Positions 7,537 to 46,509 of a stretch of 64,000 nt of DNA are shown piece by piece. Below the pieces are notes generated by a model. The model was not told the DNA's origin, did no database searches, and saw nothing but the letters and a program-made list of their open reading frames with translations. Within the stretch, counting starts at the first letter, position 1, and each line of letters begins with the position of its first letter. A program made the translations under genes and the position numbers. The DNA is from Eledone cirrhosa (taxonomy: Eukaryota): contig OZ024740.1 of NCBI GenBank assembly GCA_964016885.1, positions 306,528,001 through 306,592,000 of the forward strand. The letters are read 5' to 3'.

Positions 7537-7600
7537 ATTTTGTCTGATGAAGGCATAGCATATTGTTAATATGATATCCCCGAAATATATATAATGAAAT
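7537..7600 (+). ncRNA. Type I hammerhead ribozyme, family H2
   Basis: attttgt-CTGATGA-aggcatagcatatt/aatatgatatcccc-GAAA-tatat-ATA-atgaaat; lies in a TA-flanked unit (~7418-7640). Confidence 0.72.
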
Positions 7601-7659: not shown

Positions 7660-7716
<57 letters not shown>

Positions 7717-7780
7717 AAAAAAGATGAAATCTAAAATGCAACTGGAGTCTTTTTTTATAAAAATATATATTTATTTGGTT

Positions 7781-7818
7781 CCTTTACCGGTTTCACAGTT
7801 CTTCTGCTTTTCAAAAGT
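7781..7818 (-). ncRNA. Hammerhead ribozyme, family H3 (U3-A8 core variant)
   Basis: Minus strand reads ctt-TTGAAAA-GCAG-aagaa-CTGT-GAAAC-CG-GTA-aagg. Confidence 0.7.
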
Positions 7819-7846
7819 AGGATTGAGATGGAGGGTTTGTGGTTTT

Positions 7847-7922
<76 letters not shown>

Positions 7923-8803
7923 TAGAATAACAGATTAAAGTTTCCTGTATACGAGCGATAAATGGGCGGCTTTGCCAAATTCAAATAAGACCGAAAAAAT
8001 TTTCTCTTTTATTTGAATTTGGCAAAGCCGGCCATTTATCGCTCGTATACAGGAAACTGACTGGCCAGTTTGCTGATATGCAAATCTGGCTGATCAGAGG
8101 ATCTGCTAATATGCAGATCTGACTGATCAGCCAGTTTGCTAATATGCAAATTAGGCCGATCAGTCACTGTGTATTTTTGAAAATAGCATATATTTTCACT
8201 AGCTCTGACAGTTTGGTAGGTGAACAGTAAGCTGTTCTGATGAAGGGTGATACATTAGTGTCTGCAGTTCTGTTCACATGCCAACACAAGAGCAAGAATG
8301 AAGGGTTCATTCTACTGACATGGCTATAAAATGGAGGCTTGTTTGCATAATTGCAAACGAATCGGATGTTATTATTAATATTCGAAAAACTCAGATTACA
8401 TTTATTGTATTCAGCCATGTAGAGCGAAAAAAATTTCTTTTATATATATATATACGACTCCTGTATCGACAAAAGATATATTTTTGTTGAGGTATGTGTG
8501 CCGAGAAGTTATATGTATATAGGCATTTATTATATATATTTTTTGTGCGTGGGCACATTTCTTGGTGCATGCATGGGCAGTGGCCGACTGGGTCTAAAAA
8601 TATTGGTTACCAGGAGATGAAGGGGGCCCACCTACATATAGAATGCTATCATATAATTTTTATAATGAATAAATAACATTTTCGGAAAATACATAAGTGG
8701 AAACAAAACAGTGCAATCAAATTTTTGCGGGAAAATATCTTACCTTCTCCAATAAAGAATATTATGTATTTTGCAAAATCCAGAGACTTTCAATAATGAC
8801 CCT

Positions 8804-13927: not shown

Positions 13928-14085
13928 AAAGTTCTATTTAAATGGTTGGGATACAACAAGCAAATATTTTTATAACTGATATAAAGCACTCGACTAGTAT
14001 TTGACTATCCCGATGTCTTCCAAAAGTAACGGTTGCATTTTGAAAGGGTATGTCAATTTTTATTTATAAAACTGGTATATATTGT

Positions 14086-14148
14086 ATTTTGTCTGATGAA
14101 AGCATACCATAATTTAACATGGTATCCTTGAAATATGTATAATGAAAT
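14086..14148 (+). ncRNA. Type I hammerhead ribozyme, family H2
   Basis: attttgt-CTGATGA-AAGcATACCAT/ATGGTATcCTT-GAAA-tatgt-ATA-atgaaat. Confidence 0.8.
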
Positions 14149-14240
14149 AGATATGGTTTTATAAATATAGTTTCCATTTGTTAATATCGTATACATATAT
14201 ATATATATAAATAAGAGATTAAAGTTTAAGCAAAGAATCG

Positions 14241-14324
<84 letters not shown>

Positions 14325-14455
14325 GTGAGGTTTTTTACAAAATGAAAAATAACCGAGGTGTCCTACACGAGTGAAAGTATAAAGAAAAAGAGATGAAATC
14401 GAAAATACAACTGGAGTCTTATTTAAAAAAAAAATATATATATATTTATTTGGTT

Positions 14456-14493
14456 CCTTTGCCGGTTTCGCAGTTCTTCTGCTTTTCAAAAGG
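14456..14493 (-). ncRNA. Hammerhead family H3 (U3-A8), cleavage triplet mutated
   Basis: cctt-TTGAAAA-GCAG-aagaa-CTGC-GAAAC-CG-GCA-aagg (GTA>GCA). Confidence 0.65.
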
Positions 14494-14524
14494 TGAGTTG
14501 AGATGGAGGGTCTGTGGTTTTTCT

Positions 14525-14583
<59 letters not shown>

Positions 14584-14734
14584 CGATTCTTTGCTTAAAC
14601 TTTAATCTCTTATTTTAATAAATATTTGCTCTACGGTTCTTATATATTTGATATATATTTATCCTTATCGAGCCCTCTTGGGATTTTAGTCTTCAAATTT
14701 ATTATTATTACTATATATATATATATATATATAT

Positions 14735-21418: not shown

Positions 21419-21505
<87 letters not shown>

Positions 21506-21638
21506 GTGAGGTTTTTTTTACAAAATGAAAAATAACGGAGGTGTCCTACACGAGTGAAAGTATAAAGAAAAAGAGATGAAATCGAAAATACAACTGGAGT
21601 CTTATTTTTAAAAAAAATATATATATATTTATTTGGTT

Positions 21639-21676
21639 CCTTTACCGGTTTCGCAATTCTTCTGCTTTTCAAAAGG
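21639..21676 (-). ncRNA. Hammerhead family H3 (U3-A8)
   Basis: cctt-TTGAAAA-GCAA/TTGC-type stem II: minus strand cctt-TTGAAAA-GCAG-aagaa-TTGC-GAAAC-CG-GTA-aagg. Confidence 0.75.
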
Positions 21677-21751
21677 TGAGTTGAGATGGAGGGTCTGTGG
21701 TTTTTCTCACATCTGATGTGAGAAAAACCACAGACCCTCCATCTCAACTCA

Positions 21752-21789
21752 CCTTTTGAAAAGCAGAAGAACTGCGAAACCGGTAAAGG
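21752..21789 (+). ncRNA. Hammerhead family H3 (U3-A8), best copy
   Basis: CCTT-TTGAAAA-GCAG-aagaa-CTGC-GAAAC-CG-GTA-AAGG; all three stems pair. Confidence 0.78.
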
Positions 21790-21859
21790 AACCAAATAAA
21801 TATATATATTAAAAAAAAAAAATAAGACTCCAGTTGCATTTTCGATTTCATCTCTTTTT

Positions 21860-21900
<41 letters not shown>

Positions 21901-21946
21901 TAGCCGTCGAAACGGCTTGAGCTCAGCCGTCGGGGTCTTACTTGTT

Positions 21947-23105
<1,159 letters not shown>

Positions 23106-27195: not shown

Positions 27196-27279
27196 ACCTT
27201 CTGACGAGAATCTTTCTTTGCAACGAAGGCCGTATGGTCTCCGTTTTATTTTTGGGATTCGAAACCGATCGGTAAAGGT
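27196..27279 (+). ncRNA. Canonical type I hammerhead ribozyme, family H4
   Basis: ACCTT-CTGACGA-GAATCT...GGATTC-GAAAC-CGATCG-GTA-AAGGT. The core is perfect and stem III is palindromic (ACCGATCGGT); predicted cleavage after 27274. Confidence 0.9.
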
Positions 27280-46206: not shown

Positions 46207-46350
46207 CATACATATATACATATATATATAAACATACATATATATTTATACATACATATATATATATATATATATAAACATACATACATACATATATATA
46301 TAATTCAAAATATTAACAAATGAAGATATTCACATAATCAAAATATATGC

Positions 46351-46415
46351 TTTATTATATATATTTCGAAGGTACTGTGTTGTTGTTTTTTTCCAGTACG
46401 TCCTCGTCAGATAAA
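46351..46415 (-). ncRNA. Type I hammerhead, family H2b, intact inverted copy
   Basis: tttat-CTGACGA-GGAcGTACTG...CAGTACcTTC-GAAA-tatat-ATA-ataaa. Confidence 0.82.
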
Positions 46416-46509
46416 ATATATGATTTGATATATGACATACCTCTACGGTCTTGATATTTCAATTCCAGTATTGGCACTCAATTATATATATATAAACATA
46501 CATACATAT

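Follow-up and report, generated by a model that had tools for sequence, protein, structure and literature searches.

Does the 38-nt motif at positions 21752-21789 of a stretch of Eledone cirrhosa DNA (64,000 nucleotides of contig OZ024740.1, hereafter the window) represent a hammerhead ribozyme with an unusual catalytic core, and, if so, what kind of mobile element carries it? The original prediction described four copies of this motif. All four were located in the window with zero to two mismatches, and no match was found in 100 shuffles:

21752-21789, plus strand: intact type I minimal hammerhead motif, 0 mismatches to the 38-mer
21639-21676, minus strand: hammerhead motif in an inverted arm, with a C to U change giving a G-U pair in stem II, 1 mismatch
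14456-14493, minus strand: hammerhead motif with U16.1 changed to C (GCA triplet), 1 mismatch
7781-7818, minus strand: motif of a second subfamily, with a stem I of 3 bp plus a mismatch and C11.1 changed to U, 2 mismatches

The copy on the plus strand has the core U3-U4-G5-A6-A7-A8-A9, with U3 at 21756 and A8 at 21761, a stem I of CCUU/AAGG, a stem II of GCAG/CUGC closed by G10.1-C11.1, G12-A13-A14 within GAAA, a palindromic ACCGGU and the triplet GUA; the predicted cut lies between 21785 and 21786. A9 directly precedes G10.1, so the extra base that is usual, if not universal, in minimal hammerheads of Penelope-like elements (PLEs) is absent. UUGAAAA stands at core positions 3-9 in all four copies, as claimed. 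The further claim that the stems and GAAA are kept holds for the sequence at 21752, and the stems are not fully kept in the three other copies, of which the one at 14456, with its GCA triplet, is likely inactive.

Folding alone gives the motif no distinction. In the minimum free energy (MFE) structure of 21752-21789 stems I and II form and stem III is absent from the monomer, with a z-score of only -0.94 against shuffles; the MFE structures of the copies at 7781 and 21639 are misfolded, not hammerheads; and the z-scores of the copies range from -0.7 to -1.4, i.e. their stability is not above that of shuffles. In addition, the best 150 of 236 Rfam matches (E<=5) include no hammerhead family and are filled by miRNA models on repeats; the canonical-core hammerhead motifs of the window are likewise absent among the matches listed. 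Both the z-scores near -1 and the Rfam result would suit a resemblance that arose by chance. However, the motif has every conserved trait of a hammerhead (a Watson-Crick 3-8 pair, G12-A13-A14, A15.1-U16.1, H17, and stems I and II with G10.1-C11.1) in the position that canonical hammerheads occupy in related PLEs, an identical core has been published (PMC4209133), and descriptor matches are rare in shuffles. A chance origin thus appears exceedingly improbable.

The genome was searched with the motif pattern, positions 3, 7 and 8 being left free. There are 6,323 exact matches, and none in the control. U3-A8 is present in 6,298 of them; position 3 is changed in 17, all keeping A8, position 8 in eight, all keeping U3, and none of the 6,323 has C3-G8. 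U3-A8 is therefore fixed in the family, no CUGANGA consensus emerges, and a strict CUGANGA descriptor would miss the UUGAAAA core, as anticipated. No compensatory variation that would show selection was found within the family, and the scattered single changes at positions 3 or 8 say nothing about selection. The GUA triplet is kept in all 100 sampled copies. Meanwhile, in about half of the family's DNA depth the fourth pair of stem I is lost to a two-base change, with no compensating change. This raises the possibility that the motif is vestigial, that is, a real hammerhead by descent that has lost any useful cutting rate and is retained through overlapping promoter or protein-binding signals of the pseudo-LTR: a subfamily making up about half of the depth has spread despite the broken pair. 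The main subfamily, however, keeps all catalytic positions together with G10.1-C11.1, GUA and the palindrome.

Other UUGANAA motifs also occur in the genome (65 matches vs 11 in the control). They include at least two older families with a stem II (loci L229-L258), in most of which stem I is unconfirmed; of 30 inspected motifs, only three had a stem I of at least 3 bp in the register tested. These motifs were left out of the support for the U3-A8 reading.

What carries the motif is apparent from its surroundings. Eight longer stretches around genomic matches were examined, and three contain a reverse transcriptase (RT) frame. At locus L061, a 762-aa part of an open frame matches Pfam RVT_1 and GIY-YIG above the cut-off, the translation has a CX4CxxC zinc-finger linker ahead of GIY-YIG, and the motif lies about 1,040 nt downstream of the stop codon. 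At L066, where the ORF is split into three frames, the order is motif-ORF-motif in direct repeat, and an ATG lies 170 nt 3' of the cut site of the upstream copy; L061 and L062 have the inverted arrangement. Because the motif flanks the ORF in direct repeat at L066 and follows the stop codon at L061, it is placed, by sequence, in the pseudo-LTR of a young, very abundant Penelope-like retrotransposon that inserts into (TA)n, and the direct and inverted arrangements at these loci agree with membership in PLE terminal repeats. The closest protein relatives are 56-74% identical, and the closest named one, with 74% across 54% of the query, belongs to Octopus bimaculoides.

The element can be assigned to the EN+ PLEs of Neptune/Nematis type by described traits, its tree containing no named reference PLEs. 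The traits found are pseudo-LTRs, an inverted 5'-truncated copy, a tail at one end and a microsatellite target, and Neptune and Nematis are characterised by a CX2-5CxxC linker before GIY-YIG (Craig et al. 2021, PMC8557442). As described there, these elements share with the present one the RT, the linker, the C-terminal GIY-YIG, pseudo-LTRs with a hammerhead, 5' truncation, the inverted 5' copy, the one-end tail and the microsatellite targets; the tail is 66-68 nt here vs 30-40 nt in Neptune/Nematis, and, unlike in those, both priming sites here coincide with TATA in the element (PMC8557442). The motif is thus the terminal part of a protein-coding element, and we rejected a stand-alone ribozyme family. 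The idea of an unrecognised mobile ribozyme family has to be given up on this ground, and also because U3-A8 PLE hammerheads were published in 2014 (PMC4209133).

Two further candidates were set aside. A sister family with a canonical core that shares stem III has a single genome match and is not a credible relative. On the minus strand of L066, the cut triplet of the upstream hammerhead contains a GT, which is followed, ahead of the ATG, by a pyrimidine tract and an AG at +98. A putative intron from the GU of the cut triplet to this AG 98 nt downstream would remove the cut site; it is unsupported, because the donor is weak by eye and there are no spliced genomic copies. As PLE copies often retain introns, it may nevertheless exist.

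The compensatory nature of the core is visible between elements. Starting from an alignment of 26 proteins, we collected 134 related PLE loci, 76 from metagenomes and 58 from genome bins, and searched them with a descriptor that left positions 3 and 8 unconstrained. The 43 matches comprise 24 with C3-G8, 14 with U3-A8 and five others; block-shuffled loci gave about three matches per round (0 C-G and 0.3 U-A). Counting distinct sense-strand motifs, there are 18 C-G and eight U-A (Fisher p 2.5e-5, one C-U and two antisense matches left out), a p value that overstates independence since seven of the eight distinct U-A motifs come from the contigs of one assembly. A quick IQ-TREE tree was built from 27 RT pieces, namely this element and 26 loci with a C-G or U-A match (L135, L143 and the five odd matches left out). 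It needs four state changes, all forced by branches with SH-aLRT values of at least 95, and places the window's element within a 99-supported group together with three C3-G8 elements. At least four switches on the tree show that the swap between C3-G8 and U3-A8 is recurrent. With the family fixed for U3-A8 and the 3-8 pair covarying across related PLEs, the compensatory core of the original prediction is borne out. Such a double, pair-preserving change relative to C3-G8 relatives also speaks against a vestigial motif, as it implies that the fold was under selection, if perhaps only up to the recent past. Several of the C3-G8 relatives likewise lack the extra base between A9 and 10.1.

Among these loci, L121-L135, L143 and L144, all from one assembly, represent tandem PLE families that are close relatives and lie side by side. 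Hammerheads of both types, C3-G8 and U3-A8, occur among them, and the set is suited to a natural comparison of both cores. Loci L146-L203 are from bacterial genome bins and contain eukaryote-type PLE frames, some with hammerheads; host contamination is the most likely explanation.

The swap itself has precedents. Perreault et al. (2011, PMC3088659) reported natural U3-A8 covariation at positions 3 and 8 and cited in vitro activity; their hammerheads covary as here, but in the relevant part of that paper they are not described as PLE minimal motifs. Closer to the present family, Cervera and De la Pena (2014, PMC4209133) described U3-A8 minimal hammerheads in the Cercyon PLEs of Schistosoma, with about 1,300 heterogeneous matches to a dedicated descriptor. 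In S. mansoni (supplement rows 3 and 4), the terminal repeats of Cercyon likewise carry a type I minimal motif with U3-A8 (the core in row S. mansoni 4 is UUGAAAA too), a short helix I and a palindromic stem III, and its copies, too, are for the most part solo or paired on opposite strands at distances of 100-700 bp (PMC4209133). The host and the PLE family differ, however, and, unlike Cercyon, the present motif has a 4-bp stem II without an extra base after A9, a palindrome of 6 nt (ACCGGU) vs 4 nt, and 6,323 near-identical matches vs about 1,300, i.e. copies that are more numerous and more homogeneous (PMC4209133). The U3-A8 variant of PLE hammerheads is already in print, and this family is a further example of it.

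The motif copies of the window had been placed in non-coding units of about 210 bp embedded in (TA)n. The units do lie in (TA)n, and two are about 215 bp long; the other two are only about 145-150 bp. Given relative to the cut site, they are as follows:

21493-21715, minus strand: the longer of the two arms of a palindromic PLE insertion within (TA)n, covering the pseudo-LTR from about -72 to +148
21715-21866, plus strand: short arm of the same palindromic PLE insertion, pseudo-LTR from about -71 to +80
14312-14529, minus strand: solo 5'-truncated PLE end, -70 to +148, in (TA)n
7710-7854, minus strand: solo 5'-truncated PLE end, -70 to +80, in (TA)n

The motifs at 21639 (minus) and 21752 (plus) are thus the two arms of a single palindromic insertion and neither independent nor in tandem. 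Being adjacent and on opposite strands, they would give a long RNA hairpin and not a tandem dimer; the hairpin predicted for read-through RNA of the palindrome has about -230 kcal/mol and buries the motif. Since the four copies come from one family, they count as one evolutionary event, not four.

The ends of the copies are sharp. The 3' ends were scored in 112 copies, taken from the window and from loci L001-L068. If the TATA that element and target have in common is included, 48 copies have their 3' end at +80 and another 48 at +148; without it, these positions become +76 and +142 beyond the cut site. None of the 112 ends at the cut site. Inverted pairs combine one long and one short arm in 46 of 53 cases, with junctions that differ between loci. 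For the 5' ends, we took 100 copies in order along contig C1, from one subfamily and with the 5' half of the motif required: 40 end at -69 to -73, 19 at -35 to -68 and 12 at -75 to -310, and 29 extend past -330. Contig depth increases in the region of the pile-up, and loose TA-repeat ends occur at the -70 and +80 positions. The pile-up near -72 is read most simply as the start of the RNA, judging only from DNA copy ends, and microhomology (AT) shared with the target at -70 may play a part in it. In Drosophila, transcription of Penelope starts inside the pseudo-LTR from an internal promoter (PMC2377424).

These ends also bear on whether the 210-bp unit could be a non-autonomous family in its own right, a retrozyme or SINE-like ribozyme able to multiply on its own by way of cleaved or circular RNA. 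Short units are indeed the commoner form, with 71 of the 100 copies ending less than 330 nt upstream of the cut and 40 of them at one spot, and PLE pseudo-LTRs have been proposed as a source of retrozymes (bioRxiv 10.64898/2026.07.22.740005). But the units are solo or inverted, with no head-to-tail tandems, their ends lie off the cut site, the palindrome junctions are locus-specific, and in 29 of the 100 copies the sequence runs on into the PLE 3' UTR. End mapping largely refutes an independent retrozyme, and we regard it as very unlikely.

The window contains other repeats of this general kind. A canonical CUGACGA hammerhead with a long stem II and the palindromic ACCGAUCGGU lies at 27197-27279 on the plus strand; its family is abundant (1,720 candidates, 40 of them scored) and forms retrozyme-like direct tandems of 482-483 bp, and no RT frame was tied to it among the 40 candidates scored of 1,720. 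CUGANGA hammerhead-like motifs by (TA)n at 14085-14150 (plus), about 7540-7595 (plus) and about 46350-46416 (minus) belong to one or two other repeat families. Near-perfect inverted repeats in and around (TA)n, at 7934-8060 and 14215-14620, are probably fold-back ends of other retroelement families. The short repeat at 21897-21948 also occurs beside the PLE family at L006, L020, L027, L052 and L062, always in (TA)n, and is likely another TA-targeting element.

Are the insertions made from cut or uncut RNA? As only copies with the 5' half of the motif had entered the 5' sample, the downstream half was counted separately. Of the genome matches, 12,309 read through the cut site, and no more than 185 might have their start a few bases or less away from that site, an upper bound that is about what a truncation rate of 0.6% per position would give; of 30 putative cut-site starts inspected, several are point changes, small duplications or fold-back junctions. 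Neither the downstream-half count nor the 30 inspected starts reveal an excess or peak of copy starts at the cut site. Since copies read through the site and show no excess of ends there, the insertions appear to have been made from RNA uncut at the ribozyme, and the evidence counts against a role of the ribozyme in making the insertion template.

A comparable case is the Poseidon element PAc of Anolis carolinensis (Frangieh et al. 2024, PMC11167929). Like the present family, PAc has two internal reverse-transcription starts bounding the tail, uncut RNA as the main template and AT-rich targets. PAc differs in having C3-G8 and a hammerhead that overlaps the start codon, whereas here the core is U3-A8 and the ATG lies 170 nt downstream; its start sites lack homology to the target, whereas TATA microhomology of 4-6 nt is found at the ends here (PMC11167929).

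The near-background number of cut-site starts is also what a vestigial hammerhead would leave. In keeping with such a reading, mutants of the anole PLE ribozyme had no effect on in vitro insertion and no RNA reads starting or ending at the ribozyme site are reported in that study (PMC11167929), and Naiad PLEs thrive without canonical hammerheads (PMC8557442). The anole ribozyme does cleave, however, when the element protein is present, and according to the same account only then (PMC11167929). Taking this together with the intact main subfamily and the double change of the core, we consider a vestigial motif unlikely, if still the most serious of the alternatives.

In our view, the motif is probably a U3-A8 minimal hammerhead in the pseudo-LTR of a young PLE, a predicted weak ribozyme that would act only as a dimer or assisted by protein; the copies in the window would be truncated and inverted ends, likely derived from uncut RNA. 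The RNA of the element would start near -72, and the element protein would nick (TA)n. Internal priming of reverse transcription could then occur at +142 or +76, positions with UAUA in the RNA itself, and run-off at the RNA 5' end would yield the units of 145-215 bp, with palindromes arising by the joining of two such cDNAs. U3-A8 would keep the tertiary 3-8 pair, as published work suggests, and on similar grounds ACCGGU would let two motifs share an intermolecular stem III. The palindromic short stem III expected of a PLE-type minimal hammerhead is indeed present: the ACCGGU self-duplex has -8.3 kcal/mol, and cofolding yields the intermolecular stem. Cleavage after GUA is predicted only for the dimer or with the help of protein, and dimer cleavage is plausible on the model. 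Hammerhead dimer cleavage is summarised in the review by Weinberg et al. (2019, PMC6765202); low dimer cleavage was reported for a minimal motif in PMC4209133, where the description of the result does not name an assay of a U3-A8 motif. The ribozyme would be at work in RNA of full-length elements, in transcripts that are tandem or arise by read-through, and not in the copies of the window.

More speculatively, the copy ends might record the whole of a Neptune-type insertion, with the RNA beginning about 72 nt 5' of the cut, two TATA-guided priming sites, one for each target strand, and an uncut template, and the U3-A8 ribozyme might serve as an attenuated switch, destroying or maturing the mRNA only when two element RNAs meet in a dimeric ribonucleoprotein. 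We hold this combined scenario to be doubtful; if it were true, the role of the PLE hammerhead would be testable within one young family.

Because the swap has already been published for PLEs, the present family adds to the known examples and is not in itself a discovery. Its contribution is a PLE fixed for U3-A8 that is very young and has a very high copy number, with no fewer than 12,309 copies across the site, and the recurrence of the swap across PLE lineages means that ribozyme surveys need both cores. The sharp copy ends provide cheap genomic evidence for insertion from uncut RNA, in agreement with one in vitro study of a PLE, and this end structure is a better lead than the core variant.
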